Below, one piece after another: positions 1,707-27,675 of a stretch of 32,000 bases of DNA. The stretch is taken from positions 1 to 32,000 of the forward strand of contig JAQVTI010000009.1 in assembly GCA_028700115.1 (NCBI GenBank), in the 5' to 3' direction. This DNA is from Candidatus Iainarchaeum sp. GTDB taxonomy: Archaea > Iainarchaeota > Iainarchaeia > Iainarchaeales > CSSED10-239. The first letter of the stretch is position 1; each line of letters opens with the position of its first letter. Made by a program: the position numbers and the translations under genes. The notes beneath the pieces are model-generated. The model saw only the letters and a program-made list of their open reading frames with translations, searched no databases and was not told the origin of the DNA.

Positions 1707-1779
1707 TTTTGTGCACAAAAAAAAGTAATTTGTGCATTTGAAAGACACATTTAAAAACTTATTCTTTCATATATATAAT

Positions 1780-3042: not shown

Positions 3043-3044
3043 TT

Positions 3045-3767
3045 ATGGACTATAATAAAGTATATAAAAATTATATAAAAAAATCAAATGATTTTACTTA
3101 TATATTTGATAAAACATATTTAAAAGAATTTGAAAATTTAAAAAATAAAAATATTTTAGATATTGGTTGTGGAGAAGGTAGATTTGCTTTTACTTGTTCT
3201 AAAAAAGGTGTTAAAATAGATGCTATAGATGTTAGTTCTAAATTAATAGATTTTGCAAAAGAATATAATTATTCAAAAAATATTAATTATTATACTTTAG
3301 ATTTTGGAAATGTTGATATAAATTAATTTAAATCTAAAAAATATGATTTTATTGTAATAAATATGGTTTTATTAAATATTTTTTCTGAAAAAAAGGTAAA
3401 TAATATTTTTGAAAAATGTTATAAATTACTTAATAAGAATGGAATATTTGCATTTTCTGATTTAAATCCTATCTGTAAGGCTTGTAATGAAAGTTATCCT
3501 CATAGAGTAAATATTTTTCCTAAAACTTTTAGTTATTATAAAAAAGGATCTAAATATAGTGCTATATTAAAGTTTAATTTTAAAAAAATAGAGTTTAAAA
3601 ATAAACATTGGAGATTATAAGATTATACTAATTTTTTAGTAAAAAATAATATGTATATTTATAAAATAATTGAACCAATCTATTCTAATACAAATAAAAT
3701 TAATAGTTATTTAAAAAATATAAAATTTCCTGAATTTATAATTTTTTTTTCTAAAAAGTTAAAATAA
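3045..3767 (+). pseudogene. class I SAM-dependent methyltransferase interrupted by two in-frame TAA codons
   Basis: Motif I ILDIGCGEGRF. Track ORFs 3021-3326 and 3363-3620 and the following 3621-3767 are all in one frame. Methyltransferase-like sequence continues across TAA 3324-3326 (..NVDIN*FKSKKYDFIVINMVLL..) and TAA 3618-3620 (..KHWRL*DYTNFLVKNNMYIYKIIEP..PEFIIFFSKKLK*). Confidence 0.6.
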
Positions 3768-4746: not shown

Positions 4747-4878
4747 ATGGAAAAAATTAATCAACAAGTTAGTCAACAAATTAATATAGATAAATTATTT
4801 GTAATTAAAAAATTACCCATAACATCAAAAGAAAAAAATGGGATCTTTGAAGCATGGGTTGAATCCAGTGATTTGTAG
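4747..4878 (+). CDS. candidate precursor peptide of cluster 1 (43 aa)
   Basis: Hand translation gives MEKINQQVSQQINIDKLFVIKKLPITSKEKNGIFEAWVESSDL*. A tggag motif lies 9 nt upstream of the ATG, and the stop lies 6 nt before the PqqD-like gene. Not in the ORF track (too short). Confidence 0.5.
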   Translation: MEKINQQVSQQINIDKLFVIKKLPITSKEKNGIFEAWVESSDL

Positions 4879-4884
4879 ATTTAA

Positions 4885-5136
4885 ATGAAAAAAATTATTT
4901 TTAATAATAGAGAATATTGGTATAGGCAAGAAAAAGAAGATGTTTATATCTTATTTGAAAAAACTAACTATTTTTATCTTGTAAATATGATTATTATTGA
5001 TGTAATAGAGTATTTAGCTAATAATAAAAGTTTATTAGAGATTACAGAAATTATTAATAAAAAATATCATATTAATATAACTGTAGATTTTTTAGTCACA
5101 AAATTAAAAAATATTGAGGGTATTATTAATGAGTAA
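4885..5136 (+). CDS. PqqD-like peptide chaperone (RiPP recognition element)
   Basis: 83 aa. The pattern ..VYILFEKTNYFYLVNMIIIDVIEYLANNKSLLEITEIINKKYHINITVDFLVTKLKNIEGII fits the PqqD strand plus winged-helix layout. Its end overlaps the start of a radical-SAM/SPASM gene. Confidence 0.6.
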   Translation: MKKIIFNNREYWYRQEKEDVYILFEKTNYFYLVNMIIIDVIEYLANNKSLLEITEIINKKYHINITVDFLVTKLKNIEGIINE

Positions 5137-6118
5137 CTATTTTAGAACCCCTTTATTTCCTAGTATTGATCTTAGTACAAAATGTAATCTTAGTTGTATT
5201 CATTGTAGAAATAACAAAAATAAAATAAGTAAAATTCCTTTTAAAAAAGTTATAGAACTATTAGATGAATTTGAATCTTTGGAAGTATTTCATTTAGCTT
5301 TTGCTGGTGGAGAACCATTTTTATTTCCTAAAATTTATGATGTATTAGAATATAGTCAAAAATTAAATGTGCCCAAGGTGACTATCGTAACTAATTGTAC
5401 ATTTATAAATAAAGATAGAATTGATAAATTAGATAATAATAAAATTAGGTTTGCTGTTAGTTTAGATGGACCAAAAGAAATACACAACTTTATTAGAAAT
5501 GCAGATGTATTTGATAAAGTAATAGATAATATTAAATATTTAGTTTCAAAAGGTTTTTTTGTTATGCTAAATTGTACTTTAATGAAATATAATTATAAAT
5601 ATTTCGATGAGATTATCAAAATTGCTAAAAATTTAAAAGTTAATCAAATTAATTTTTCAAAAGTATTTCCTGTACATTCTGAGATTATTAAATTTATGCT
5701 TTCAAAAGAAGAATTAGATGAGTTATATGAAAACTATAGAAAATATTCTGGTGAAGATAGTTTAGTTATATTCTTAGATAAAGGGTATATGGGTTTTCCT
5801 GATGCATATGATTCTGATATTGCATTTTCTATGGGTTGTAGAGCGGGTATTTCTCAAATAAATGTAATGTCGGATGGTTCTGTTGTAGGTTGTAAATTAT
5901 TACCGGATGTTTGTGCTGGAAATATTTATAAAAATACAATTAAAGAAATATGGGATGATAATAATAATTGGAAGTTATTCCGAAATGTTATACAAAATAT
6001 TAATAGTGATACTTGTAAAAAATGTGATTATTTTTATGCTTGTAAAGGTGGATGTAGAGCATTTGCTTATTATATGACTGGAGATATAAATGGTAAGGAT
6101 CCTTTATGTCCACTATAA
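5129..6118 (+). CDS. radical SAM enzyme with SPASM domain (PqqE/MftC-like peptide maturase)
   Basis: CNLSCIHC (CX3CX2C), GGEPFL, and C-terminal GCRAG...VGC...CKKCDYFYACKGGCRAFAY. ATG 5129 with gaggg 8 nt upstream is preferred over the TTG at 5114. Confidence 0.85.
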   Translation: MSNYFRTPLFPSIDLSTKCNLSCIHCRNNKNKISKIPFKKVIELLDEFESLEVFHLAFAGGEPFLFPKIYDVLEYSQKLNVPKVTIVTNCTFINKDRIDKLDNNKIRFAVSLDGPKEIHNFIRNADVFDKVIDNIKYLVSKGFFVMLNCTLMKYNYKYFDEIIKIAKNLKVNQINFSKVFPVHSEIIKFMLSKEELDELYENYRKYSGEDSLVIFLDKGYMGFPDAYDSDIAFSMGCRAGISQINVMSDGSVVGCKLLPDVCAGNIYKNTIKEIWDDNNNWKLFRNVIQNINSDTCKKCDYFYACKGGCRAFAYYMTGDINGKDPLCPL

Positions 6119-7747
6119 ATGATTACTATGAAAACTATTAGTGAGATAATTATAGAATTTATTAAATTTTTAAAAATTGATACTATATTTGGAATTCCTG
6201 GTTCTAATCTAGATTTTTTAAAGTATTTGTCAGAAGATAAAGTAATAAAATTTATTGTAAATAAAGATGAAAAAAATTCGCCTTATATGGCTATGGGGTA
6301 TACTAAATCATCTAATAAAATTAGTTGTTGTTTTGGTAGTGTAGGTGCAGGAGTTTTTAATTTAATTCCTGGCACAATATCTGCTTATTATGAATCTGTT
6401 CCTTTATTAATAATCGGTGGGCAGACTAATTTAAAAAATAAAGGTAAAAATACTTTTCAAGAGGCCTCTGGATGTGCTAGAAGTGTAAGTCAGTTAAATG
6501 AATTTAAAAAAATAACTTTGTACAATTGTATTTTAAATGAAAAAAAATTGTTCCAACAATTAGAAAAAGTATTTTTTAGTTTAAATGATTTTAGATCTGG
6601 TCCGGTATATATTGAATTTCCATCAGAACTTATGAATTTAAAAATTAATTTTAATAAAAAAATATTTTGTAATATGAAAATTAATTTTAATAGATATAGA
6701 TTAGATAAAATTAAATTATATGATGAATCAAAAAAAGTTAATCAATTAATTATTGATTTAAATAAATCTAAAAAACCAGTTATATTAATTGGTAATGGTG
6801 TTAAAGATTCAAAAGAAATTATTAAATTATCATCTAAATTTAGAATTCCTATTTTTTCTACATTTAAAGGAAAAGATAGGGTTACAAATAATTTTAAGTA
6901 TTATATGGGTTGTTTAGGATTAATTGGTAGTTCTATTGGTAATAATTATTTTAAAGAAAGTGATTTGTTAATATCTATTGGATCTAGTTTAAGTCAGTTT
7001 ACTACGGATAATTGGAAATTAATTGATAATAAAAATATTTATAGAATAGACACTATTAATGATGATATAACCAAACATAAGGGGATTGTAATTAAATCAG
7101 ATTATTCTGATGTTTTTAAAAAACTTTTAAGTTCTGATTACAAAGGAAATAATAATATTGTTGAATTAAAACAAAGTATTGATAATGAATTAAATAAATT
7201 TAATAGCCCTAAAATAAATTTAATAAGAAAATTAAGGACTAGTTTATCAAAAGACTCTATAATAGTTACTGAAGATATTTTTTTAATTGGTAAGTATTTT
7301 AAATTTTATAAAAATGATATTAATTTAAATTTTACAAATATTGCTCCTATTGGGTGTGCCTTATCTGGAGGCATAGGGGCTCAAATAGCAAATTCTAAAA
7401 AAAAAGTTATTGTAATTTTGGGGGATGGAGGATTTAACATGAATATTTCTGAATTAAATACAATTATGAATTATAAAATCCCTTTAAAAATTATATTAAT
7501 TAATAATAATGGTTATGGTATAGTGTATAAATCACAAATACATAAATTTAAAAATAATTTTTATACTCAATTTAAAAATCCAGATTATTTTAAATTAAGT
7601 CAATCATACAATTTTACTGCATATAATATAAATAATGTTTTTAAATTATCATTAAAAAAACTTAAAAAAATAATTAATTCAAATAAAACGGAATTAATAA
7701 ATGTAAAAGTAGATATTGACGAAAAAATAGGAATTAAAATATATTAA
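6119..7747 (+). CDS. thiamine-diphosphate-dependent enzyme, acetolactate-synthase-like three-domain architecture
   Basis: N-domain IDTIFGIPGSNLDFL...DEKNSPYMAMGY...VPLLIIGGQ, middle domain KPVILIGNGV, and ThDP-binding GDGGFNMNISELNTIMNYKIPLKIILINNNGYG. Confidence 0.8.
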   Translation: MITMKTISEIIIEFIKFLKIDTIFGIPGSNLDFLKYLSEDKVIKFIVNKDEKNSPYMAMGYTKSSNKISCCFGSVGAGVFNLIPGTISAYYESVPLLIIGGQTNLKNKGKNTFQEASGCARSVSQLNEFKKITLYNCILNEKKLFQQLEKVFFSLNDFRSGPVYIEFPSELMNLKINFNKKIFCNMKINFNRYRLDKIKLYDESKKVNQLIIDLNKSKKPVILIGNGVKDSKEIIKLSSKFRIPIFSTFKGKDRVTNNFKYYMGCLGLIGSSIGNNYFKESDLLISIGSSLSQFTTDNWKLIDNKNIYRIDTINDDITKHKGIVIKSDYSDVFKKLLSSDYKGNNNIVELKQSIDNELNKFNSPKINLIRKLRTSLSKDSIIVTEDIFLIGKYFKFYKNDINLNFTNIAPIGCALSGGIGAQIANSKKKVIVILGDGGFNMNISELNTIMNYKIPLKIILINNNGYGIVYKSQIHKFKNNFYTQFKNPDYFKLSQSYNFTAYNINNVFKLSLKKLKKIINSNKTELINVKVDIDEKIGIKIY

Positions 7748-7759
7748 ATAAGTGATTTT

Positions 7760-8074
7760 ATGAAATATGGTATTGAGTATATAGTTAAAAAAGATTTCTT
7801 AGGTACTATTAAAATTATAAAGAATAGATCTGATTTTAATAAAGTTAATGAAAATGATATTATTTTATTATTAAACACAAGTCCTGATGTTATTTTGTTA
7901 TTTAATAAAATTAAAGGTGTTATTATTGAAATAGGAGGCCAAACATCACATTTAACAATTATTGCAAGAGAGAGTAATATGCCTCTAATTAGATTAAATA
8001 ACGCTAAAGAAATAATTACAGATGGCGATTTTGTAAAAGTAGTTGAGGGTAATATTTATGTTAATGAAAATTGA
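7760..8074 (+). CDS. stand-alone PEP-utilising enzyme mobile (phosphohistidine swivel) domain protein
   Basis: DIILLLNTSPDVILLFNKIKGVIIEIGGQTSHLTIIARESNMPLI...DGDFVKV matches the GGxTSHxxIxARExxxP swivel-domain signature. Confidence 0.8.
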   Translation: MKYGIEYIVKKDFLGTIKIIKNRSDFNKVNENDIILLLNTSPDVILLFNKIKGVIIEIGGQTSHLTIIARESNMPLIRLNNAKEIITDGDFVKVVEGNIYVNEN

Positions 8075-9065
8075 GGTTCTTTGTAAAAAGATAGCTAAAG
8101 ATATATCTATAATACAAAAAGGAGGGGCAATTGAAACTCAGTGGCCTTTTTTAACTTCAGAAGTAGAAAACTATATTGGTGTTGATTTTATCAAACATTT
8201 AAGTAATATATTAGATGAAGCTTTATTAAACAATAATATAACACAAATTGCTACTAAATTGAAATACCCTTCAATGATAACTCAATATATTGCTTTGATT
8301 CATAGTGCAAATGTATTACCTCTTAATAAAAGAATTGAATTAATAACTAATTTAATAAGTATAATAGAAGAATTAAGAATGGACTATTTATGTAATAAAG
8401 GTATTAATATATTGCAAAATTTTGATATTAGTAAATTTTTATCTAATGATATTAAACAAGATATTATTCCTCAAAAGATATCTAGTATTTTATATGCTTA
8501 TACTGAAAAATTATATCCTACTTTAATGCGTTTGTCATTTGAACATCATGGTCCATATATTTTTAATAAAAAAAAATATGTTGTAAAAGAATATTTTAAT
8601 CTTAAAAATCAATATTCAAATATGTTTCCTGTTTTTAACTATGATAATGTTAAAATAATTCAAGAAATAGAAGGAGATTTTAATGTTGATTTTTTTGGGC
8701 ATTCAATAGGAGATTATAAAATAGTTAATTCGATTTTAGTTGTAGATAATGAAATAATTAGTGACACAAATAAATTTTTAGAAGAAATATTAATTAATTT
8801 TATTAATTTAGATAAGTTATTTTTAGAATATACTGTTGAAGATTATGCTAAAAATTTAACAAATGGATTGTTTTATTCTTTAAAACCATTAACTACTTTA
8901 ATTAATAAAGATTGGGTTCCATCTAAAAATATAATTGCTAAATTAAATGGGTTTAAATTATTTTTTCCTAGAGATAAAATTATTAATTATATAAAGTCTA
9001 CAGATATAAATGAAATAGAATTTAAAGTGTACTTAAGTTTTAAAAATATTTTTATTAAAGATTAA
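8058..9065 (+). CDS. unknown-family protein, conserved partner of the swivel-domain protein (paralog of 22952-23833)
   Basis: Overlaps the previous gene. By-eye homology to the cluster 2 protein: CKKIAKDISIIQKGGAIETQWPF vs CNKISKDMFYLCISGSTIHNWPL, and DFFGHSIGDYKI vs SFFGHIFKVEEI. No motif I recognise. Confidence 0.6.
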   Translation: MLMKIEVLCKKIAKDISIIQKGGAIETQWPFLTSEVENYIGVDFIKHLSNILDEALLNNNITQIATKLKYPSMITQYIALIHSANVLPLNKRIELITNLISIIEELRMDYLCNKGINILQNFDISKFLSNDIKQDIIPQKISSILYAYTEKLYPTLMRLSFEHHGPYIFNKKKYVVKEYFNLKNQYSNMFPVFNYDNVKIIQEIEGDFNVDFFGHSIGDYKIVNSILVVDNEIISDTNKFLEEILINFINLDKLFLEYTVEDYAKNLTNGLFYSLKPLTTLINKDWVPSKNIIAKLNGFKLFFPRDKIINYIKSTDINEIEFKVYLSFKNIFIKD

Positions 9066-9067
9066 TT

Positions 9068-9916
9068 ATGAAATATGAAATTCATTTTAATTATAAATGT
9101 AATCAAAATTGTATTTTTTGTAGTGTATTACAACATCCTCAAAGAGATCTAGAATTAAGTGATTTAGATCTAATTTTACCTTTTATTCATAATAATCAAA
9201 TTGTTCAAATTAGTGGAGGAGAGCCTTTATTAAATACAAATTTGATTAAATGGGTAAAAGAAATTAAAAAAAAAACTAGATTTATTTCTTTAACTACTAA
9301 TGGCACTTTATTAAATAAAGATAATTTAAATGAATTAATTAATTTAGGTGTAAATTGTTTTATTATTTCATTACATAGTAATACTATTAATAATTTTAAG
9401 AAAATAACTACAACTGATAACTTTAATAATGTAATAAATTGTTTAGAATTATTTAAAAAAATAAATAATAGTAGCATAAAAGTAATAGTTAATACCGTTA
9501 TTACAAAATATAATATTTCTGAAATTTTCGATTTATTTAAAATGTTACATGAAAAATATGGTTTTGCTAAAATAAAATTATCTTATCCTAGATTTTATAA
9601 ATTTGCAAAATCTGATTTTAATTGTAAAATTCATTTATTGTCATTAACAGATGTTCATTTCTTTTTAAAAGATATAATTAATAAACCTTATTTTGATAAA
9701 CTTATTATAGAAAATATTCCTTCATGTATAATTAAACCTAGTAAAGAATATAGAGACTGGTCTACTAAACTTTTAACAGTAGATGGAATAAAAGATAGTG
9801 TAGATAACACGAGATATTATATGAAAAAATGTGTTACTTGTAATTTAAGATTAAATTGTCAAGGATTTCACAAATATTATAATTATTATTTTGACGATTA
9901 TATTTTGGAAACATAA
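9068..9916 (+). CDS. radical SAM enzyme (second, 282 aa)
   Basis: CNQNCIFC (CX3CX2C), SGGEPLL, and C-terminal Cys cluster CVTCNLRLNC. Confidence 0.75.
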   Translation: MKYEIHFNYKCNQNCIFCSVLQHPQRDLELSDLDLILPFIHNNQIVQISGGEPLLNTNLIKWVKEIKKKTRFISLTTNGTLLNKDNLNELINLGVNCFIISLHSNTINNFKKITTTDNFNNVINCLELFKKINNSSIKVIVNTVITKYNISEIFDLFKMLHEKYGFAKIKLSYPRFYKFAKSDFNCKIHLLSLTDVHFFLKDIINKPYFDKLIIENIPSCIIKPSKEYRDWSTKLLTVDGIKDSVDNTRYYMKKCVTCNLRLNCQGFHKYYNYYFDDYILET

Positions 9917-9968
9917 TTGTTTAGATAGATTTATTAATTTGTAATTATATATATTTATAGTGTTGTAT

Positions 9969-10688
9969 ATGTTTAAAGGAAATATTTCAACTAATTTAAA
10001 ATTTACAAATAAATTAGATAGATTAAAAAAAGAAACTATAGCTTCTAAAAAAATTACTTTTGCAAGTTATCCAAAAAAAGAAGTTGCAATTAAGTATGTT
10101 GATGCTTTTTGGAAAAGATATTTTGATGGAAGCTTAGAAAAATCTTTATCTAAAAGAAAAGATAACCATTTTATTTCTAATTATAATCCAAATGTAAAAA
10201 TTTTTCCTATTTCTCCTACAGTTTCTGTAACTGTAAGAAAAATGAATTTAATAGATGTAAGACCTTATTTCGAAATTCATAAATATTATAAAGAAAAATT
10301 TAAAAATGCAAATTTTAAATATTCTAAATTTGTTTTAACAGATATAATAGATTATAAGAAAAAAGGGGATTTTTATTATGTTCTTGAAAGAATAGTTCCT
10401 TCTATTAGTGTATATGATTTTTATGTGTCAGATTTTAAGGGTTTTAAAGAAAATAGATTTTCTAAATCTTTTCAGAAAAGTTTAGAAAAAGTGGATTTAT
10501 TAAAGATGAAAGAAGATTTAGGTCCAGCATTAAATGAATTAAAACATTTTATTAATAATAATTCTAAATTTAAATTTAGACTTGATAATTCTAATAATAA
10601 TATTATTATAATTGATTATAATCCAGAAACACATAAATTTAAATTTGGATTAATTGATTTTGCTGGTATGAGTTCTAAAAGTTTTTAA
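9969..10688 (+). CDS. putative atypical protein-kinase-fold protein
   Basis: EVAIKYV (VAIK-type beta3 lysine), LDNSNNN (DxxxxN catalytic loop) and LIDFAG (DFG-like). All assigned by eye, and the motif spacing is compatible with a small RIO/Bud32-size kinase. Confidence 0.35.
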   Translation: MFKGNISTNLKFTNKLDRLKKETIASKKITFASYPKKEVAIKYVDAFWKRYFDGSLEKSLSKRKDNHFISNYNPNVKIFPISPTVSVTVRKMNLIDVRPYFEIHKYYKEKFKNANFKYSKFVLTDIIDYKKKGDFYYVLERIVPSISVYDFYVSDFKGFKENRFSKSFQKSLEKVDLLKMKEDLGPALNELKHFINNNSKFKFRLDNSNNNIIIIDYNPETHKFKFGLIDFAGMSSKSF

Positions 10689-14325: not shown

Positions 14326-15747
14326 TTATTTCTTCTTTGTGAAAAATTCAATAGCAACTTCTAGTTCTTTATGTGTTTTTGCATATTCTTCAATTGAAAT
14401 TCCTTTTTTATATGCCTCACATGCCTGAACTAAAGCCATTGCTCCTTCTTTTGTACCATTTGGATGAGCATGACAACCTGCACCCATAGTTGTAATAAAG
14501 TCAACTCCACCCATAACATCAATAAATGGTTTTAATAAAGTAGGGTTAAGTCCTCCTGAAACAATAGGTGTACATTTTTTTACACCTCTCCATTCATCTT
14601 CATCTAAGATAGCTTTGTGTGCATGATCTTTTTCTACATTTTCAATAAAATCTAAATCTTTTTCAGATATTTTACCCCAAGATTGATCAAAGAAAAATCC
14701 TTTTCCATATAAATCTAATATGTTTTTAGCAGCAGTGATGTCTGATTTAGGAGTTCCATCCATTTTTCCAACTCCAGCAGTTCCTGTATGTATCCCAGAA
14801 GCTCCTGCAAGTCTTGCAAATTTAGATAAAACTAAAACTGAAAATCCAAAATCATTTTCTGGTCTTGTAAAAGCACCGTGAGCTGCTCTATGGAAATGTA
14901 TAAAAACATCAGGATATCTTCTTCTTAGAGTTTGAACAGCCATCCATCCTGCAGTAATCCCATCTATTAAAAATGCATATGAACCTTTTTCAAATCCTGC
15001 ATTTTCAATCATTTCACATCTTTTAATCATTGTGTCAAAATCTGCAGCTGAAACATTAAAAGAGTGTACTTTTTTCTTTCCAGTCTCTTTTACTGCCTTT
15101 TCCATTGCGTTTTTTACATGTTTTACCATTTTATCGTATGGACAGAAGTCTTGGTCTGCTTGAGGCTCATCGTTTTTAACAAAGTCTCCTCCACCAACCC
15201 AGAAGTCATAACAAACTTCTGCATATTCTGCTGAAGTTAGTCCCATTTTTGGCTTTACAATTGTTCCTAGAATAGGTCTATTATAAACATCTAAGTATTT
15301 TCTCATATCATCAATTGTGTATGATGGTCCATCAAATTGTTCTAGCATAGAAGGAGGAAACCATAAGTCTAAAAGTTTAAGAGCAGAAACTTCTTTCATA
15401 CCTAAAACATTTCCTACAATGTAAGTTAGTATATTTTGTACATTTCCAACTCTATCAAAAAGTCTCCATGGATATGCAATCCATACAAGTTCTTTTTCTT
15501 GATCTAAGTCATAAACTAAAGCATTCATTTCTCTTGAGAATGCAGTTTCTGTTTGTACTTTAAAATTAGTCCCAGTTGAAGACTCAGCTGCAATTTCTGC
15601 TGCTGCTTGTAAGACATTTAGTCCTTTACCTTCTTTCATTCTAAAAACACAAAGAAGATATTCTCCATTTTTTGTGTTTGGTATATTAAAATTAACATAG
15701 GCTTTTTGTTTTTCATTTAAAGTTTCATATAATTCATTTTTATTCAT
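14326..15747 (-). CDS. rbcL: ribulose-1,5-bisphosphate carboxylase/oxygenase large subunit, form II/III-type
   Basis: AAESSTGTN, GTIVKPKMGL, CYDFWVGGGDFVKNDEPQ, HFHRAAHGA, ARLAGASGIHTGTAGVGKM, TPIVSGGLN. The core is form II-like, with an extra roughly 27-aa segment (KISEKDLDFIENVEKDHAHKAILDEDEWRGVKKC) before TPIVSGG. Confidence 0.9.
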   Translation of the reverse strand: MNKNELYETLNEKQKAYVNFNIPNTKNGEYLLCVFRMKEGKGLNVLQAAAEIAAESSTGTNFKVQTETAFSREMNALVYDLDQEKELVWIAYPWRLFDRVGNVQNILTYIVGNVLGMKEVSALKLLDLWFPPSMLEQFDGPSYTIDDMRKYLDVYNRPILGTIVKPKMGLTSAEYAEVCYDFWVGGGDFVKNDEPQADQDFCPYDKMVKHVKNAMEKAVKETGKKKVHSFNVSAADFDTMIKRCEMIENAGFEKGSYAFLIDGITAGWMAVQTLRRRYPDVFIHFHRAAHGAFTRPENDFGFSVLVLSKFARLAGASGIHTGTAGVGKMDGTPKSDITAAKNILDLYGKGFFFDQSWGKISEKDLDFIENVEKDHAHKAILDEDEWRGVKKCTPIVSGGLNPTLLKPFIDVMGGVDFITTMGAGCHAHPNGTKEGAMALVQACEAYKKGISIEEYAKTHKELEVAIEFFTKKK

Positions 15748-17884: not shown

Positions 17885-19144
17885 ATGGATAAAGATTATT
17901 TAGAAAGAATAATTTTAGATCAGTCTGAAGATCTTAAACAAATAGATTTAGGTTTACCTAGAGATAAACTTTTAGATTTAGATACTCAAATTAAATCAAA
18001 AATAAATATAATAATTACAGGTGTTAGGCGTTGTGGTAAATCTACTTTATTATTACAAATAATGAATAAATATTATAAAAATAAATTTTATTATTTAAGA
18101 TTTGCAGATGAAAGACTTTCAGATATAAAAATAGATGATTATCAAAAAATATATGAAATATTTCAATCAAATTTTAATATGAATAATATATTTTTTTTTG
18201 ATGAAATACAAGGTAAACCTAATTGGGATAAATTTGTTAATAGATTGTATGAAACTGGAAATAAATTTTATATAACTGGATCAAATTCAGAATTATTAAG
18301 TAAAGAAATATCTACTTATCTTACAGGAAGACATTTAGATGTTGAATTATATCCTTTTTCTTTTAAAGAATATTTAAATTTTAAAAAGATTAATTTAGAT
18401 TATAGATATTCAAAAAATTTAATAAAAATAGAAAAAGAACTAAATAACTATATAAAAATAGGTGGTTTTCCACAAGTTGTTGTTGAAAATAATTTAGTAT
18501 TACTTGAAGAAATATATGAAGATATAATTAATAAAGATATTTTATTAAGATATAATTTAAATGATGTAGCTATTTTTAAAAAAATAGCATTATTTTTAAT
18601 ATCAAATATATCAAAAGAATTTTCATATAATTCTATTAAGAAAATGTACGATATAGGTAATTCTGATACTGTTAGAAATTATGTTTATTATCTTAAAAAT
18701 GCTTATTTATTATTTGAATTACCTAAATATGACTATTCTTTGAAAAAACAAGAAAGTTATTCTAAAAAGATTTATGCTATAGATACTGGTTTAATAAATA
18801 AGTTGGCTTTTTCTTTTTCTGAGAATATAGGTCGGCTTTATGAAAATTTAGTTTTTATAGAATTAAAAAGAAGAAATAAAAGGATATATTTTTGGAAAGA
18901 TAAATCTAATTATGAAATAGATTTTATAATTTTAGAAAAAAATAAAGTGACTTCTTTAATACAAGTTGTATATGATTTAAGTGATTTAAAAACAAAAGAA
19001 AGAGAAATAAGAGGCTTAATTTCTGGTTTAAAAGAATTTAAGCTTAAAGAAGGTATAATAATTACAAAAGATTTAGACAAAAAAGAAAAAATAGATAATT
19101 TAACTATAAAATATATACCTTTATGGAAATGGTTATTAGAATAA
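17885..19144 (+). CDS. AAA+ ATPase, AAA_14/DUF4143 family (paralog 2)
   Basis: TGVRRCGKST Walker A. Same length and end (KYIPLWKWLLE) as 1780-3042. Confidence 0.8.
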   Translation: MDKDYLERIILDQSEDLKQIDLGLPRDKLLDLDTQIKSKINIIITGVRRCGKSTLLLQIMNKYYKNKFYYLRFADERLSDIKIDDYQKIYEIFQSNFNMNNIFFFDEIQGKPNWDKFVNRLYETGNKFYITGSNSELLSKEISTYLTGRHLDVELYPFSFKEYLNFKKINLDYRYSKNLIKIEKELNNYIKIGGFPQVVVENNLVLLEEIYEDIINKDILLRYNLNDVAIFKKIALFLISNISKEFSYNSIKKMYDIGNSDTVRNYVYYLKNAYLLFELPKYDYSLKKQESYSKKIYAIDTGLINKLAFSFSENIGRLYENLVFIELKRRNKRIYFWKDKSNYEIDFIILEKNKVTSLIQVVYDLSDLKTKEREIRGLISGLKEFKLKEGIIITKDLDKKEKIDNLTIKYIPLWKWLLE

Positions 19145-21255: not shown

Positions 21256-22185
21256 TTATTGTTGTTTATTATAAACTTTAACTATTTTTTTATAAAATTT
21301 ACACATTTCCATAAATTGATTAGGATTTGTCTTTTCTAAAAATTTGCACCCTCCTTTACAGTAATTCCATATTTCGCAATTTTTATTTAAACATATATTA
21401 ATATTATTTATTTTTTTTAGATTATATTTTTTATACATTGTTAATAAATGACATCTATCATAACTACCATCTGGAAATATTCCATAAGTTGTATTTTCAT
21501 AATAACCACAAAATTTATTTTTATTTAATTTATTATCTAAATAATTAAAAAAATAATTTGAAAATGGGGATATTTTTATATTTTTTTTATGAAGTGAAAG
21601 TATGTATTCTATATCTTTAATAGTTATTCTTTTTATAGAATTTATATTGGAAAAATTAAATCCTATGTAATTTGGATTTAATTTTAATAAATTAATTATA
21701 TTCTTTTTAAAATTAATTTTTGTAGATATTGTGGATGATATTTGTAATTGTATCCCTCCTTTTTTAATTAATTTAGCATTTGTTATAAGTTTTTTTATAT
21801 TGGTTGATCTATTTTTTAAATTAGTTTCAATAGGGTCAATACTTATAGTTATATTTTTAATACCCCAATTTTTAAGTTTTTTAATTGTATTTTTGTTAAT
21901 TAAAGTTCCATTTGTAATTATATTAAAATTGTAAATACCTAGTAATTTTAATCTTATTATAATTTTTTTAATGTTTTTTAAGTCTAATAAAGGTTCTCCA
22001 CCATAAAAAATAATTGTAGAATCCGATCTATATTTTTTTGGAACTAATAAGTTAATAGAATTTATAATATTATTTATGTCAAATGCATTTTTTTTATTTA
22101 ATAAATTAATTTTTTTTAAATAACAATATTTACAATTTAAGTTACAATTATATGTAGTTATTATAAATAATTTATATTTTTTCAT
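21256..22185 (-). CDS. radical SAM enzyme with SPASM/twitch-type C-terminus (cluster 2, distal)
   Basis: CNLNCKYC (CX3CX2C), YGGEPLL, and C-terminal CLNKNCEIWNYCKGGCKF. Confidence 0.8.
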   Translation of the reverse strand: MKKYKLFIITTYNCNLNCKYCYLKKINLLNKKNAFDINNIINSINLLVPKKYRSDSTIIFYGGEPLLDLKNIKKIIIRLKLLGIYNFNIITNGTLINKNTIKKLKNWGIKNITISIDPIETNLKNRSTNIKKLITNAKLIKKGGIQLQISSTISTKINFKKNIINLLKLNPNYIGFNFSNINSIKRITIKDIEYILSLHKKNIKISPFSNYFFNYLDNKLNKNKFCGYYENTTYGIFPDGSYDRCHLLTMYKKYNLKKINNINICLNKNCEIWNYCKGGCKFLEKTNPNQFMEMCKFYKKIVKVYNKQQ

Positions 22186-22619
22186 AATTCTTCTAAAATA
22201 TTAATGGTTTTTTCTAAATTATAATTTATAAATAAATTATCTCTTTTATTTTTATAATTTTTTATTAATTTATTTATATTATCGTTAATTAATATTGGAT
22301 CACAATTTAGAAATAATAATTTTTTACAGTTATTATAAAAATATGTGGTTAACAATAAATTATCTAGTATGTTATAATTTATTTTAACAAAAGTATTTAC
22401 CGATAAAGGATAAATTAAAATTAAATTTGGTTTTGGAATTGAATTAATATTACTCCATTCTATTTTTCTATTTTTTAAAAATTTGAATTTATTTAAATTA
22501 AATAAATTATATGAATTATTTGAAATACAATAATATACTTTATTTTTTTTAAGGATATTGTTAATTTTATCTAAATTCAATATATTTTGACCAGCACAAA
22601 CTAAAACATATATAATCAT
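22182..22619 (-). CDS. HFCD-type flavoprotein-like protein (LanD/EpiD/CoaC family), short form
   Basis: MIIYVLVCAGQN (Rossmann start) and YPLSVNTFVKINYNILDNLLLTT, compared with the family signature PASANT..K.A.G..DNLLT recalled from EpiD/Dfp. 145 aa, shorter than typical members. Confidence 0.5.
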   Translation of the reverse strand: MIIYVLVCAGQNILNLDKINNILKKNKVYYCISNNSYNLFNLNKFKFLKNRKIEWSNINSIPKPNLILIYPLSVNTFVKINYNILDNLLLTTYFYNNCKKLLFLNCDPILINDNINKLIKNYKNKRDNLFINYNLEKTINILEEL

Positions 22620-22948
22620 AAATTATCAATTGTAATGGTTTTTTTATTAAAATCAATTATTAATTTTTTATTATTTTTAAACAAATTTATATTATCTACT
22701 TTTATTAAAAATATTTTTTTTTCTCTAGCAAATATACTCATGTGACTTAAATAACTTCCATTTTCAATAATTCCCCCTAATGAATAAAGTAAATATGGAG
22801 AATCCATAGGGGTTAGGGATTTAGAAATTAGAATTTTATCTTTAATTTTATTTAAATTTGTATTATTTTTTAAAATCAAAGATTTTCCAGAAATTATTTT
22901 TGTCATATTAGATTTACTTAATATTTCAAATTTAATTTTATTTATCAT
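22616..22948 (-). CDS. stand-alone PEP-utilising enzyme mobile (swivel) domain protein, paralog of 7760-8074
   Basis: DKILISKSLTPMDSPYLLYSLGGIIENGSYLSHMSIFAREKKIFLI keeps the SH...ARE core of the swivel domain. Confidence 0.65.
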   Translation of the reverse strand: MINKIKFEILSKSNMTKIISGKSLILKNNTNLNKIKDKILISKSLTPMDSPYLLYSLGGIIENGSYLSHMSIFAREKKIFLIKVDNINLFKNNKKLIIDFNKKTITIDNL

Positions 22949-22951
22949 TTA

Positions 22952-23833
22952 TTATTCCTCTAAAAGATATTTTATGAAGTTATGTGTATTTTTAATTACT
23001 TTTGTTTTATTTTCAATAAATATACTTGCATCTTTATCAGTATCTACATTTAAATATTTGTTTACATCTAAAATATATTTATTTTTTAAATTAATATGAG
23101 TTGTGAATTGGTTATAAACATAATTAACTTTATCTTTATTTAATTTTAATTTTATATTTTTTTTAAGATTTATTAAATGTAGTGATAATTCATTTATTAA
23201 TTTATTTGGATTTATGGTTTTATTATTTTTCATAATTAAAAAATCATTTATTTCTTCTACTTTAAATATATGTCCAAAAAAGCTAATATCTGGTTTTTTT
23301 ATATAATTACTTATTAAAATATATTTTTGATTATTAATATTATATTCTCTATATAATTTCCCATTAAATGTGTATATGTTAAATCCAACTCCTCTAAAAA
23401 TTGGAAAATAAATTTCATTTAAATTATCTAATAAAAATACTGTAGAATAATATAATTCTCTATTTTTAATAAATCTACCTAATTTTAAGTCTTTATTTGG
23501 ATTTAATTTTAAATCCATTGTTTTTTCTAATGTTATGTCTTCATATTTATCAATTAAATAAGTTATTATTTTTTTAAAATATTTTTTTTGTGTAATTTTA
23601 TTTGTTTTTTTATTTATTAACATTAGTAAATATGATCTTAATTCAAAAAAAGAAATATTTGATATATTATTATCAATATAATCTTTAAGATATGGTGTGA
23701 AATTTTCTGCGAATATATTAGAAATTATGGTTGATGATAATGGCCAATTATGAATTGTAGAACCAGATATACATAGATAAAACATATCTTTACTTATTTT
23801 ATTACAAATTTTATTTATTAATTTCTTTTCCAT
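22952..23833 (-). CDS. unknown-family protein, partner of the swivel domain (paralog of 8058-9065)
   Basis: ATG at 23833 (MEKKLINKICNK..) is preferred because it abuts the upstream stop and aligns with the cluster 1 paralog. See the shared segments listed for 8058-9065. Confidence 0.6.
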   Translation of the reverse strand: MEKKLINKICNKISKDMFYLCISGSTIHNWPLSSTIISNIFAENFTPYLKDYIDNNISNISFFELRSYLLMLINKKTNKITQKKYFKKIITYLIDKYEDITLEKTMDLKLNPNKDLKLGRFIKNRELYYSTVFLLDNLNEIYFPIFRGVGFNIYTFNGKLYREYNINNQKYILISNYIKKPDISFFGHIFKVEEINDFLIMKNNKTINPNKLINELSLHLINLKKNIKLKLNKDKVNYVYNQFTTHINLKNKYILDVNKYLNVDTDKDASIFIENKTKVIKNTHNFIKYLLEE

Positions 23834-23834
23834 G

Positions 23835-24401
23835 TTATTCTGCCTTATATTTAAGTAATATATATTTATTTTCTTTAAAATAAATTTCAACACCAATATT
23901 TATTAAATCTATTGCCCTTATAGGTAATAAATTTTCACATAAAATTTTATTTTTGTAATTATTAGATAAATTTTGCCAATAATTATTTATAAATTTATTA
24001 TATTCTAAATTACTTAATTTTTTCTTAATTTTATTTAGGATTTCAGTTTCTTTTTTTTTATTAATTGAAATTATATGATAAAAAATACCTTTGTCTTTTA
24101 ATAATGATTTACATTTTTTAATAAATTTTATGCCATTATTTTTGAAATATATATCATTAAATAAATTTACTGAATATATTATATCATATTTTGTTTTATT
24201 AAAATTATATTTTAAAAAATCTGATTTTATATAATGTATTTTTTTTGTTTTTAAATTATTTATTTGAATTAAATCTAATAAAGTTATTTTATGGCCTTTA
24301 TTTAATAATTTTAAATAGTTTTTATTGTTATTAACCCCTATTTCTAATATATTTAAATTTAAAGTACTTGAAATATCATTATATATAATATCATATAACA
24401 T
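23835..24401 (-). CDS. methyltransferase-like protein (class I fold, degenerate SAM motif)
   Basis: LNILEIGVNNNKNY..HKITLLDL, YDIIYSVNLFNDIY and LLKDKGIFY follow the motif I / post-I / II-III order, but the GxGxG motif is not intact. Confidence 0.45.
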   Translation of the reverse strand: MLYDIIYNDISSTLNLNILEIGVNNNKNYLKLLNKGHKITLLDLIQINNLKTKKIHYIKSDFLKYNFNKTKYDIIYSVNLFNDIYFKNNGIKFIKKCKSLLKDKGIFYHIISINKKKETEILNKIKKKLSNLEYNKFINNYWQNLSNNYKNKILCENLLPIRAIDLINIGVEIYFKENKYILLKYKAE

Positions 24402-25536
24402 ATTTATCTTTTATTTTTATGATTTTGTTAAATAATTTATTGGTTACCGTACATAAAGGATCTGATCCTAAAAGTTCTTGTGCATAGATACAACCTCCAT
24501 ATCTTGCACACAAAGAATTATTTTTCAAATAACAATTTTTACAATCGTTTATTTTATAAGAATTATATAATTTGTTTTTTATATTATATATTTCTTTTAA
24601 ATCATTAATAAACTTTATATTTCCTAATTTATGTTTTTCTAAACCTACAAATCTATTACATAAGTAAATGTCTCCATTATTATTAATACCTAACATATTA
24701 TCTTTAGTAATACAACTAGTAGTAAATCTACAATTAGGTAAAGGCATATTAAAAAAAATAGCATCAATATAACTATCAAAATCTTTTATAGTAATTTTTT
24801 TATTTTCTAAATAATAGTTAAAACAATCGTATAAGAATTGCACATATTTATTAACTAAATTATTATCTACAATATTTTTTCCTCTTCCTACTGGATACAT
24901 TAAATTTATTTGTAAATCTACATTTAAATTATTATAAAAATCTATGTAATTTATAGGTTTTATTTTGTTTACAGTAAAATTATTTAATGTAGATAATACA
25001 TTAAATTTATTCTTATTTTTTTTAAGTATATTAATACCTCTTATAACTTGATTAAAAGAACTAAAATCATTTTTATTAACTCTATATTTGTCATTAATAA
25101 ATTTTGGTCCATCTAAACTTACCCCTATAGCAAAATTATTTTTTTTAAAAAATTTAGAATAATCTTCATCTATTAAAGTTCCATTTGTTTGAATTTTATT
25201 TACAAAATGAATATTTTTTGGGAATATATCTTTTTGTAAATCAATTATATTTTTATAAAAATCTAACCCAGCTAAAAGTGGTTCTCCTCCATGCCAGGCA
25301 TATTCTAAAGTTAGAAATCGCGGATTATATTTTTTGACTTTATTTATATCTTTTTTAGAATATATTGAATTTATATAATCTAAATTTTTATAAAATTCAT
25401 TAATAGTTAAATTAAATATTTTTTTAATTACATCTATAGATATTAAATCATATTTTTGATTGTATGAACCGTATGTATAACAATATTTACAATTTAAATT
25501 GCATGCATTTCCAACAGGTCTTATTGAATATCCCAT
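24391..25536 (-). CDS. radical SAM enzyme with SPASM domain (anSME/peptide-maturase-like; cluster 2, proximal)
   Basis: CNLNCKYC (CX3CX2C), HGGEPLL, and C-terminal CRFTTSC...LCNRF...CKNCYLKNNSLCARYGGCIYA. Confidence 0.85.
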   Translation of the reverse strand: MGYSIRPVGNACNLNCKYCYTYGSYNQKYDLISIDVIKKIFNLTINEFYKNLDYINSIYSKKDINKVKKYNPRFLTLEYAWHGGEPLLAGLDFYKNIIDLQKDIFPKNIHFVNKIQTNGTLIDEDYSKFFKKNNFAIGVSLDGPKFINDKYRVNKNDFSSFNQVIRGINILKKNKNKFNVLSTLNNFTVNKIKPINYIDFYNNLNVDLQINLMYPVGRGKNIVDNNLVNKYVQFLYDCFNYYLENKKITIKDFDSYIDAIFFNMPLPNCRFTTSCITKDNMLGINNNGDIYLCNRFVGLEKHKLGNIKFINDLKEIYNIKNKLYNSYKINDCKNCYLKNNSLCARYGGCIYAQELLGSDPLCTVTNKLFNKIIKIKDKYVI

Positions 25537-25544
25537 ATTATTTT

Positions 25545-25691
25545 TTAATATCCATCTACATATTCATCAGCACCGTGTGCTGTTTTTCTAACTAAATCAA
25601 AATAGATATTGTCTTTATCTAATTTATTTTTTTTAAGTAATTCATAATTTTTAAACCTACATTTTATTGCATTTGATTCAATTTTAGCCAT
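25545..25691 (-). CDS. candidate precursor peptide of cluster 2 (48 aa)
   Basis: Base-by-base hand translation gives MAKIESNAIKCRFKNYELLKKNKLDKDNIYFDLVRKTAHGADEYVDGY*. ggagga lies 8 nt upstream of the ATG, and the stop lies 8 nt before the rSAM start. Not in the ORF track. Confidence 0.5.
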   Translation of the reverse strand: MAKIESNAIKCRFKNYELLKKNKLDKDNIYFDLVRKTAHGADEYVDGY

Positions 25692-25774
25692 AAATTGATT
25701 CCTCCTAAATGTTTTTATTAGTATACATAAGGTTTTTATATGTTTCTTTTAAATTTTATTACTTTTTCAATTAA

Positions 25775-26452
25775 TTTTTTAGTTTCTGGATCATTATAAA
25801 AATCAGAAACACAAAGGCAGATATTATTAATTTAGTTAGAGTAGAAACACCTGAAATACCAGAACCTGCTTTAAGGGAATCAATATTAAATGCAATGATT
25901 CATAGAAATTATTTTATTCAAGGAAGAATATTAATAGAAATTTATGAAAATAGAGTGGAAATATTAAATCCTGGAAAACTATTATTTGATCCAAAAGAAT
26001 TTGGTAAAGTAAGTGTTTCAAGAAATCCTATATTAGCAGATTGTATATTAAGAACTAGTTTGATAGAAAAGATAGGTTCTGGTGTTAAAAGAATTAGAAA
26101 ATTAGTTCCAAATGTTAAGTTTAATATAGATACAGATTGGTTTAGTGTTATATTTAAAAGAGATATATCTACTAAAGTGGATAGTAAAGTAAGTGTGGAT
26201 GCCGGTATAAATGCACCTGTAAATGCACCTGTAAATGCACCTGTAAATGCACCTGTAAAATTAAATAATTTACAATTAAACATTATAACAGAAATACGAA
26301 AAAATAAAAATATAACTTATGATGATTTAAGTAATATATTTTCTATACATAGAACTACAATTATGAGAAATATTTCTAAATTAAAGAAATCAGGAATATT
26401 AGAAAGAATTGGATCTGATAAAACAGGATTTTGGAAAGTAAATAAAATTTAA
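25775..26452 (+). pseudogene. 5'-truncated remnant of an AlbA_2/HATPase_c_4-type ATP-binding wHTH regulator
   Basis: The frame is open from 25775. Family-typical ..EPALRESILNAMIHRNYF.. lies across the first ATG (25895). The C-terminal wHTH is ITYDDLSNIFSIHRTTIMRNISKLKKSGILERIG. The N-terminal domain of the family is absent. Confidence 0.5.
26209..26256 (+). repeat. perfect 12-bp x4 tandem repeat (aaatgcacctgt) encoding (NAPV)4
   Basis: Counted directly: units at 26209, 26221, 26233 and 26245. Confidence 0.9.
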
Positions 26453-27067: not shown

Positions 27068-27675
27068 TTATAATAATATTAACTTACCATAATCTGTTAA
27101 AGAAAGATTTCCATTAATTTCATTAACTAGACCTTTTTCTTTAAAATCTCTTATGTTATTATAAACTGCAGTTCTTCCTAGTTTTTTATTATTTGAATTT
27201 GCAAGTTCTGAAAGAGTTATTTTCTTTTTAGAAATAGTACTTAATAGATCATATGCATTTTTATTAATCTCAAAAGAAAGTTTAGGAATTGAAATCATTT
27301 TATTTATTTCTTGAGTAAAATATAATATTTCTTTTATTTTATTACTTCTTGCATAACAACCAAGCATAATACCAATAGACTTTGTTTTTCTTCCAGAAGT
27401 AATATCTCTATATATATTTCATTAATATCTTCATTATATACTTTATCTATTTCTTTAATAATTTCCTTTGCGATTTCATAAACTTCATAAACAGAAGTTT
27501 TAATTTCTTTAAATTTAATATGTTTAAATGTGTTTTTTAGTTTTTCTTTAGCTTCTTTTTGATGTTCATCTGGTTTTTTGTCTATTATTAGATAAATCTC
27601 TTCAGGATTTATCTTTGTAATAGCTCCAACCATTGGAGTAAAAGAATATGTGTTTGTGAATAATATTTTTTTCAT
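27068..27675 (-). pseudogene. Csa3/CARF-like N-domain plus wHTH regulator, frameshifted
   Basis: Track ORFs 27334-27675 and 27068-27367 overlap in different frames. Upstream of the second ORF its frame reads NIYRDITSGRKTKSIGIMLGCYA (a TGGxK-type CARF motif region). The frames meet at the (TA)4 run at 27409-27416. The C-terminal wHTH is ITLSELANSNNKKLGRTAVYNNIRDFKEKGLV. Confidence 0.5.

Follow-up and report, generated by a model that had tools for sequence, protein, structure and literature searches.

The 32,000-nucleotide stretch of archaeal DNA analysed here (contig JAQVTI010000009.1, called the window below) carries on its minus strand a short open reading frame (ORF), 25545-25691, that translates to MAKIESNAIKCRFKNYELLKKNKLDKDNIYFDLVRKTAHGADEYVDGY and lies directly upstream of a gene for a radical S-adenosylmethionine (SAM) enzyme with a SPASM domain. 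The ORF heads a seven-gene minus-strand operon that runs from 25691 to 21256, with intergenic gaps or overlaps of at most 11 nucleotides (nt), in the order peptide, radical-SAM/SPASM enzyme, methyltransferase, a protein that we call X, swivel protein, flavoprotein and second radical-SAM enzyme. The features of the operon, with lengths in amino acids (aa), are as follows.

25700..25705, minus: Shine-Dalgarno-like GGAGGA, 8 nt 5' of the ATG of the peptide ORF
25545-25691, minus: putative precursor peptide gene, 48 codons, ATG start, first gene of the operon (NCBI PHR26_00850)
25548..25577, minus: predicted core of the peptide, residues 39-48, HGADEYVDGY, from the alignment of five peptides, with an inferred leader/core boundary
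24391..25536, minus: predicted radical-SAM/SPASM peptide maturase, 381 aa, sulfatase-maturase/DynA-like group (Pfam Radical_SAM and SPASM)
23835..24401, minus: class I SAM methyltransferase, 188 aa (Pfam Methyltransf_11), with an 11-nt overlap with the enzyme gene
22952..23833, minus: protein X, 293 aa, conserved core component, fold without a match (NCBI PHR26_00865)
22616..22948, minus: stand-alone swivel (phospho-histidine) domain protein of the phosphoenolpyruvate (PEP) utiliser type, 110 aa (Pfam PF00391)
22182..22619, minus: short HFCD-family flavoprotein, 145 aa (Pfam Flavoprotein PF02441, 24 bits)
21256..22185, minus: second radical-SAM enzyme, 309 aa, Cys-rich C-terminus, last gene of the operon (Pfam Radical_SAM and Fer4_12)

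The peptide ORF is a real gene. Its Shine-Dalgarno-like site lies in a window of 22% G+C, where the two strands together have only 20 GGAGG sites, roughly half of which lie 5-9 nt ahead of a start codon and at least five of which (19378, 28543, 31644, 16699 and 25705) are in front of clear gene starts; this rarity and placement make the GGAGGA at the peptide ORF meaningful rather than a trivial match. The stop codon of the peptide is separated from the start of the radical-SAM/SPASM gene by 8 nt. An identical 48-aa protein is on public record as the hypothetical protein PHR26_00850 of a Candidatus ainarchaeum sp. metagenome-assembled genome (DPANN), and the ORF is called as a gene in several sources. 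A sequence-only reading of the window had already singled out a 48-codon ORF with a strong ggagga site here, and our analysis confirms both; its description of the ORF as unannotated is at odds with the public record. No Pfam or NCBIfam model, the NCBIfam precursor models included, matches the peptide, and its 48 residues retrieved only themselves from a word-indexed database of 5.8 billion proteins. Relatives of the peptide were found by way of the neighbouring genes (enzyme and X).

The tail of the peptide is conserved across distant lineages. Among the loci of relatives (L001-L021), four further independent lineages have a 40-59 aa ORF directly 5' of a related radical-SAM/SPASM gene, so that, with the window, the upstream peptide ORF is found in 5/5 lineages having sequence 5' of the enzyme. 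The peptides of the four further lineages are the following.

L001/L008 peptide: 48 aa, C-terminus ...RKNAHAEDEYADKY
L010 peptide: 40 aa, C-terminus ...NYEDWAGDEYVDKY
L002-L004/L009 peptide: 59 aa, C-terminus ...GWVDHSDVYGDKY
L013 peptide: 54 aa, C-terminus ...RFQCWGQDYSDRY

All five peptides terminate in Tyr-x-Asp-x-Tyr-stop, and in their alignment the only invariant residues beyond Met1 are Y44, D46 and Y48, with a His or Trp 4-5 residues ahead of Y44 in every lineage. It is the last 5-10 residues, as far as the stop codon, that carry most of the conservation, and the N-terminal leaders are variable, being only partly similar. When all six-frame ORFs of at least 25 aa in the window and L001-L017 were scanned (1078 ORFs), the Y-x-D-x-Y-stop ending was found solely in these peptides, each directly upstream of the enzyme. 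The family loci span 18-46% G+C, which indicates that conservation of the peptide is not due to recent common descent. In L005, a 97%-identical relative of the window, all 48 residues of the peptide are the same; the peptide ORF has 1 synonymous change in 147 nt, compared with 16 changed codons out of 246 in the enzyme, ten of them non-synonymous, and these small numbers point towards a peptide more conserved than its enzyme. The C-terminal Tyr stressed by the sequence-only reading is invariant in the five-peptide alignment, but the Gly-Tyr and Glu that it had also stressed are not conserved, as G, K or R occurs at position -2 and E, V or D at position -6. What is conserved alongside the tyrosines is Asp, neither Glu nor Gly.

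These peptides have the features sought in a precursor of a RiPP, a peptide synthesised ribosomally and then modified post-translationally. A conserved, co-oriented short ORF adjoins the maturase gene in 5/5 lineages, and the sequences display a leader/core organisation, with Y44, D46 and Y48 invariant and the N-terminus variable. The proposal that the ORF encodes a substrate of the adjacent radical-SAM enzyme is supported, since the ORF is kept rather than absent at the homologous loci, and we consider it very probable from these comparisons that the ORF encodes the precursor or substrate peptide of that enzyme.

The adjacent enzyme resembles several groups of maturases and stays below the curated cut-off of each. 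Its scores, and those of the five family enzymes, against the four NCBIfam models of most concern here are as follows.

Anaerobic sulfatase maturase, anSME (TIGR03942): window enzyme 188 bits; five enzymes 170-217 bits; cut-off 349 bits
DynA (NF041298): window enzyme 163 bits; five enzymes 163-220 bits; cut-off 450 bits
MftC (TIGR03962): window enzyme outside its best 25 models; L001 orthologue 47 bits; cut-off 265 bits
PqqE (TIGR02109): outside the best 25 models for the window enzyme and the other family enzymes; cut-off 381 bits

Each of the best 25 NCBIfam models reaches 51 bits or more with the window enzyme. The two top models for 5/5 family enzymes are anSME and DynA, followed mainly by GrrM/OscB, YhhB, AmcB, FxsB (XyeB lower), TIGR04083, PapB and DarW/DarE. 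The cyclophane-synthase models (XyeB, GrrM/OscB, FxsB, YhhB and AmcB) give 66-106 bits for the window enzyme and 57-144 bits across the five enzymes, against cut-offs of 310-450 bits, and the enzyme is under the cut-off of every model tested (anSME, DynA, cyclophane synthases, MftC and PqqE). The enzymes of these top-scoring models act on peptides or proteins, and most of them lack a RiPP recognition element (RRE). Among solved structures, anSMEcpe 4K37 comes closest, and ChlB (9GM3) is matched at 62 bits. A neighbour-joining tree made without bootstrap groups the enzymes of the window, L001, L002 and L013 in a clade of their own, separate from 117 sulfatase-maturase-like database hits.

The CxxxCxxC motif of the enzyme begins at residue 12, so an N-terminal recognition domain, whether an RRE or another, is missing; the suggestion that recognition is built into the N-terminus of the enzyme fails on this point. 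C12, C16, C19 and 8 further cysteines are invariant over the five family enzymes, and the 8 auxiliary cysteines would suffice to ligate two auxiliary clusters fully, as they are in the sulfatase maturase. The supposed kinship with MftC and PqqE is contradicted by the hidden Markov models, neither being in the best 25 and the MftC score of the L001 orthologue lying far below its cut-off. Firm clustering with the sulfatase maturases, which the sequence-only reading had named as an argument against a peptide substrate, was seen only in part: the best model is indeed anSME, but at about half of its cut-off, four of the five enzymes form a separate clade, the peptide has no Cys/Ser-x-Pro/Ala-x-Arg motif, and the window ORFs scanned with Pfam include no sulfatase domain. 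The remark that the cluster has no PqqD-like gene agrees with our searches, in which Pfam and NCBIfam gave no MftB/PqqD-like match on any operon protein. On these grounds the enzyme appears to be a distinct RRE-less member of the sulfatase-maturase/DynA/cyclophane-synthase branch.

Protein X and the swivel protein are the obligatory companions of the peptide/enzyme pair wherever a locus extends far enough downstream of the enzyme. The order conserved across loci is peptide, radical-SAM/SPASM enzyme, X and then swivel where the contig reaches (the L010 contig stops at X), and X and swivel adjoin in 14/14 loci examined. Homologues of X are ~290 aa long. Those of the swivel protein are ~105 aa long, and the His of their GxxLSHxxIxxRE motif is invariant in 14/14 homologues beside X. 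The closest PDB relatives of the swivel profile are the C-terminal swivel domains of 5FBS/5FBT/5FBU and 5HV1-3, series that we take to be the Listeria rifampin phosphotransferase. In rifampin phosphotransferase, the His is loaded by an ATP-grasp domain and goes on to phosphorylate a hydroxyl that sits in a substrate-binding domain of its own.

Sequence searches of Pfam, NCBIfam and PDB gave no match to protein X, even with a profile built on 35 sequences, and an exhaustive HMMER search of 1.84 billion cluster representatives yielded just 37 relatives, which are stand-alone proteins or fragments of at most ~340 aa. Its conserved motifs are WP, R-x-D, PIFRGxG, YRxY and FFGH. AlphaFold2 modelled X on 35 sequences with a predicted local distance difference test score (pLDDT) of 93.9 and a predicted template-modelling score of 0.91, compared with a poor model on only 4 sequences (pLDDT 52). 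The better model has an antiparallel sheet with helical N- and C-terminal parts around it, and Foldseek found no match to it in PDB or BFVD. The possibility that X is a diverged ATP-grasp protein was ruled out, as hhalign against the PPDK_N protein of L019 gave a probability of 0.2% and no rifampin phosphotransferase or PPDK appeared in the Foldseek list.

The X/swivel module accompanies at least four different peptide/radical-SAM pairings. One of them is a second cluster in the window itself (cluster 1), and others occur at the loci of relatives; they are listed here together with the ATP-grasp-plus-swivel neighbours of the module.

7760..9065, plus, window cluster 1: paralogous pair of swivel (7760-8074) and X' (8043-9065)
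L015 3787-3987 and L018 157-348: CDC-repeat peptides, e.g. ...SPDCDCDNCECDCNCHCDCNGNCDCASYCYDCR, upstream of a ~320-330 aa radical-SAM enzyme, X and swivel
L006 728-2218 (minus) and L019 961-2490 (plus): proteins of ~500 aa with ATP-grasp (PPDK_N) and swivel domains, directly beside X/swivel

The X' protein of cluster 1 aligns with the X profile in hhalign at a probability of 97% (E 5.6e-11), and the swivel protein next to it matches Pfam PF00391 and the operon swivel (BLASTP, E 7e-8). A third X subgroup (L015 and L018) is joined to Cys/Asp-rich CDC-repeat peptides and a different radical-SAM enzyme, and L021 has yet another X/swivel pairing. The presence of X/swivel beside other peptide and radical-SAM pairs (cluster 1, L015 and L018) links the module to peptide modification in general. 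The ATP-grasp-plus-swivel proteins of L006 and L019 are 55% identical to each other and belong to the CDC-peptide subgroup of X; they are candidates for the charging enzyme of a phospho-His relay. Used as tblastn queries, these two proteins matched only the swivel region 7883-8044 of the window, which rules out an ATP-grasp domain hidden elsewhere in it. A profile scan of genome contigs with a three-sequence X alignment found nothing, and the scan with a 10-sequence alignment found four loci, all of the CDC-peptide subgroup. The public gene call at 3896-4003 of L015 is in the wrong frame for the CDC-repeat peptide.

The reading that we prefer, at a probability of about 0.72, is that the 48-aa peptide is the precursor of an undescribed archaeal RiPP-type system, with a variable leader of ~38 residues and a C-terminal core [H/W]-x3-4-Y-x-D-x-Y-COOH. 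The enzyme would generate a 5'-deoxyadenosyl radical and take a side-chain hydrogen in the core, most plausibly from the C-beta of Asp46, which would then be joined to a Tyr ring to form a three-residue Tyr-x-Asp macrocycle of the triceptide/dynobactin type. Chemically, such an Asp-Tyr bond would be the lower homologue of PqqE's Glu-Tyr bond, and the upstream His or Trp could enter a second ring. The X and swivel proteins would form a split phospho-His relay like that of rifampin phosphotransferase, in which the peptide would be held by X and receive a phosphoryl group from the swivel His, probably on a Tyr hydroxyl or on the carboxylate of Asp; in another version, X may be a leader-binding element in place of the RRE that the enzyme lacks. 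The methyltransferase, the flavoprotein and the second radical-SAM enzyme would be lineage-specific tailoring enzymes. The parts of this scheme differ in strength. That X and swivel act on the same peptide is somewhat probable; the carbon-carbon cross-link between Tyr and Asp, and phosphorylation as the chemistry of X/swivel, which is modelled on rifampin phosphotransferase, are both tentative, each at clearly less than even odds.

Several observations weigh against the preferred reading. The family is tiny, with five lineages known mostly from short metagenome contigs, and in the neighbour-joining tree the L010 enzyme is outside the clade of the other four, yet also apart from the database hits. 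Since the enzymes get no further than about half of any curated cut-off, they cannot be assigned the chemistry of a known family. The 32-kb window contains no ATP-grasp or PEP-binding domain able to charge the swivel His, and X has no similarity to kinases, ATP-grasp proteins or, by Foldseek, solved structures, which makes the proposed phosphorylation an analogy only. Furthermore, some X/swivel pairs are on short contigs without a visible peptide or enzyme (L011, L012 and L016).

Among characterised systems, the dynobactins, triceptides and sulfatase maturases offer the closest parallels. For 5/5 family enzymes, DynA ranks among the two best NCBIfam models (163-220 bits); it is an RRE-less, sulfatase-maturase-like enzyme that works on a short, C-terminal, aromatic-rich core and makes aromatic-to-C-beta links, including a His-Tyr link, and the peptides here have their His or Trp 4-5 residues before Tyr44. 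Unlike dynobactin and darobactin, the family has scores of less than half of the 450-bit cut-off, an unrelated core sequence and a DPANN archaeon rather than a Gram-negative bacterium as host, and the dynobactin and darobactin clusters have no counterpart of X/swivel. For triceptides (three-residue cyclophane RiPPs), the defining feature is a link from an aromatic residue to a C-beta on aromatic-X-X motifs, and ChlB, whose Tyr motif is YDR, sets a precedent (PMC11499958). An invariant aromatic-X-X motif, the hallmark of a triceptide precursor, is present in our peptides as Tyr44-x-Asp46, and the maturases are related (57-144 bits across the five family enzymes). Precursors of the FxsA type, too, carry their motif right at the C-terminal end. 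In contrast to triceptides, the maturase scores are far below the cut-offs of 310-450 bits, the motif is single rather than repeated, the final Tyr is invariant, and X and swivel are obligatory companions. The sulfatase maturase (PDB 4K36-4K39) provides the best family model and the closest solved structure, and it shares the lack of an N-terminal domain and two auxiliary clusters fully ligated by cysteines; however, the enzyme stays under the cut-off of 349 bits, the peptide lacks a Cys/Ser-x-Pro-x-Arg motif, and the window ORFs that were scanned with Pfam include no sulfatase. The system thus looks like an RRE-independent radical-SAM RiPP of dynobactin/triceptide/sulfatase-maturase logic that fails the curated thresholds of all of them, as well as those of mycofactocin and PQQ biosynthesis.

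The parallel for X/swivel is rifampin phosphotransferase (5FBS and 5HV1). The swivel protein is nearest to its C-terminal swivel domain and keeps the catalytic His, and an ATP-grasp-plus-swivel protein adjoins X/swivel in L006 and L019. Unlike in rifampin phosphotransferase, the components here are separate proteins, the window has no ATP-grasp domain, and X is not detectably similar to the rifampin-binding domain. In the literature searched, no PEP-utiliser/phospho-histidine swivel domain or X-like protein was linked to RiPP biosynthesis, and a search for RiPPs of DPANN archaea returned nothing relevant.

A cofactor precursor of the MftA or PqqA kind is an improbable alternative to the RiPP-type precursor that we prefer. 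Under this explanation the C-terminal Tyr would be decarboxylated (-46 Da) and cross-linked in the manner of MftC, or a Glu-Tyr bond would be formed in the manner of PqqE, and the product would be a small redox cofactor. Mycofactocin and pyrroloquinoline quinone (PQQ) likewise derive from a small precursor with an essential Tyr at or near its C-terminus, encoded beside a radical-SAM/SPASM enzyme and strongly conserved in its core. The invariant C-terminal Tyr fits, and a core so unusually conserved over distant lineages would be expected sooner in a cofactor precursor than among the variable antimicrobial peptides. The HFCD-type flavoprotein of the window operon belongs to the peptidyl decarboxylase family but is missing from the other four lineages, and two HExxH proteins after the L001 cluster could cut out a small product. 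The enzyme, however, is of neither the MftC nor the PqqE type by the scores given above, no RRE partner such as an MftB/PqqD-like protein was detected in the cluster with Pfam and NCBIfam, and the NCBIfam precursor models fail to match the peptide. The Glu and Gly that this chemistry requires are not conserved; the conserved acidic residue is Asp at -3, not Glu, and the Val-Tyr or Glu-x3-Tyr spacing is absent. The analogy with MftA and PqqA drawn by the sequence-only reading is therefore only loosely apt: it holds for a C-terminal Tyr next to a maturase, and it does not hold for the enzyme type, the RRE partner or the Glu and Gly residues.

An unmodified small protein, acting as a structural or regulatory partner (subunit, chaperone or antitoxin-like) of a small-molecule enzyme set, is just as improbable. 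The set would consist of the radical-SAM enzyme, X and swivel, with phospho-His transfer as in PEP-dependent metabolism. In cluster 1, a thiamine-diphosphate enzyme occurs beside X'/swivel and radical-SAM enzymes, a combination suggestive of small-molecule chemistry, and the contigs that carry X/swivel without a visible peptide lend the idea some support. Against it, conservation in the last 5-10 residues with a variable N-terminus fits a leader/core peptide, not a folded protein of 40-59 aa. In addition, the close relatives of the enzyme all modify peptides or proteins, and other X/swivel loci too begin with a short peptide-like ORF, such as those of the CDC-repeat peptides.

A chance intergenic frame that is not expressed would suit the shortness of the ORF, its lack of a Pfam or NCBIfam family and its retrieval of only itself among 5.8 billion proteins, but this explanation is already refuted, for practical purposes, by the comparative data, since motif, position and orientation are kept in five lineages, a strong ribosome-binding site precedes the ORF, an open frame of 48 codons would arise at random with a chance of ~1% (an estimate, with stops at ~9% of random triplets at 22% G+C), and the gene callers of several sources already call the ORF.

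With the RiPP-type precursor as the preferred explanation, the locus combines a precursor family with a sharp three-residue signature and an enzyme of the dynobactin/triceptide cross-linking branch. Archaeal RiPP pathways are very few, and to our knowledge the DPANN archaea, with their extremely reduced genomes, have yielded no characterised one. We rate the precursor family and the accessory module as new and the radical-SAM RiPP as a known kind of system; the interest comes mainly from the pairing of swivel with the orphan-fold X, from the DPANN host and from a core conserved in a cofactor-like manner. The X/swivel pair is an obligatory partner pair without a described counterpart in peptide biosynthesis, made of a confidently predicted fold without a PDB match and a free phospho-histidine carrier. 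If X and swivel act on the peptide, the RiPP toolbox would gain either phospho-His relay chemistry or a new mode of leader recognition, in a system as small as a 48-aa peptide and three proteins. The core is conserved like that of a cofactor precursor, so a small molecule derived from Tyr/Asp, with a redox or signalling role in organisms of minimal metabolism, could be the end product. Somewhat short of even odds, we envisage a new archaeal peptide class whose YxDxY tail would be cross-linked by an RRE-less radical-SAM enzyme and then processed by X and swivel, a module that may be reusable in DPANN and related archaea, replacing the RRE or adding phospho-His chemistry, possibly with such a small product.

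Two further genes of the operon, those of the methyltransferase and the flavoprotein, are accessory. The methyltransferase occurs only in the lineage of the window, where it is placed between the enzyme and X, and is absent from L001, L002 and L013; the flavoprotein, whose gene overlaps each neighbour by 4 nt, is restricted to the same lineage. The best NCBIfam models of the second radical-SAM enzyme are peptide maturases, all far under their cut-offs. Apart from generic radical-SAM similarity, no further accessory families shared among the loci were found. In L001, the two HExxH proteins (258 and 272 aa; 6970-8569, plus) directly follow the peptide-enzyme-X-swivel cluster and could be leader peptidases, their sole match being a weak one to the DUF5700 peptidase (E 0.03). 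In the higher-G+C lineages of L002 and L013, a gene for an NAD-dependent epimerase/dehydratase flanks the cluster on one side, and a DUF2666 gene and an AsnC-type regulator lie on the opposite strand at the other flank, an arrangement conserved in both.

Cluster 1 (4747-10688, plus) is the second peptide/radical-SAM cluster of the window. Besides the swivel/X' pair, it comprises the following genes.

4747-4878, plus: 43-aa ORF ending ...GIFEAWVESSDL
4885-5136, plus: 83-aa ORF, possibly PqqD-like, without a Pfam/NCBIfam match
5114-6118, plus: radical-SAM/SPASM enzyme, best matches AhbD-like; MftC 108 bits against a cut-off of 265 bits
6119-7747, plus: acetolactate-synthase-like thiamine-diphosphate enzyme, 244 bits against a cut-off of 538 bits
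9068-9916, plus: radical-SAM enzyme after X'
9960-10688, plus: uncharacterised 242-aa protein

A thiamine-diphosphate enzyme is unusual in a peptide cluster.

Scans of the window for tRNA genes and Rfam families gave no matches. Divergent from the operon, the ORF 25895-26452 encodes a HATPase_c_4/helix-turn-helix (HTH) protein with a perfect four-fold NAPV repeat (VNAPVNAPVNAPVNAPV) at 26300-26360 (plus), and the mirror ORF opposite this repeat has GAFT repeats. On the minus strand, the overlapping ORFs 27334-27675 (HFX_2341_N-like) and 27068-27367 (HTH-like by inspection of the sequence only) may be one archaeal regulator gene split by a frameshift (27068-27675). Similarly, the consecutive short ORFs 3021-3326 and 3363-3620 (plus) look like halves of one class I methyltransferase, the first with a GCGEGRF SAM motif, and may reflect a disrupted gene or a sequencing frameshift. 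The window also encodes two paralogous AAA_14/DUF4143 ATPases (1732-3042 and 17885-19144, both plus) and a Fic-domain protein (656-1597). A RuBisCO large-subunit homologue at 14326-15747 (minus) is presumably of form III, which is common in DPANN archaea, and this gene and SerRS place the window in an archaeal context.

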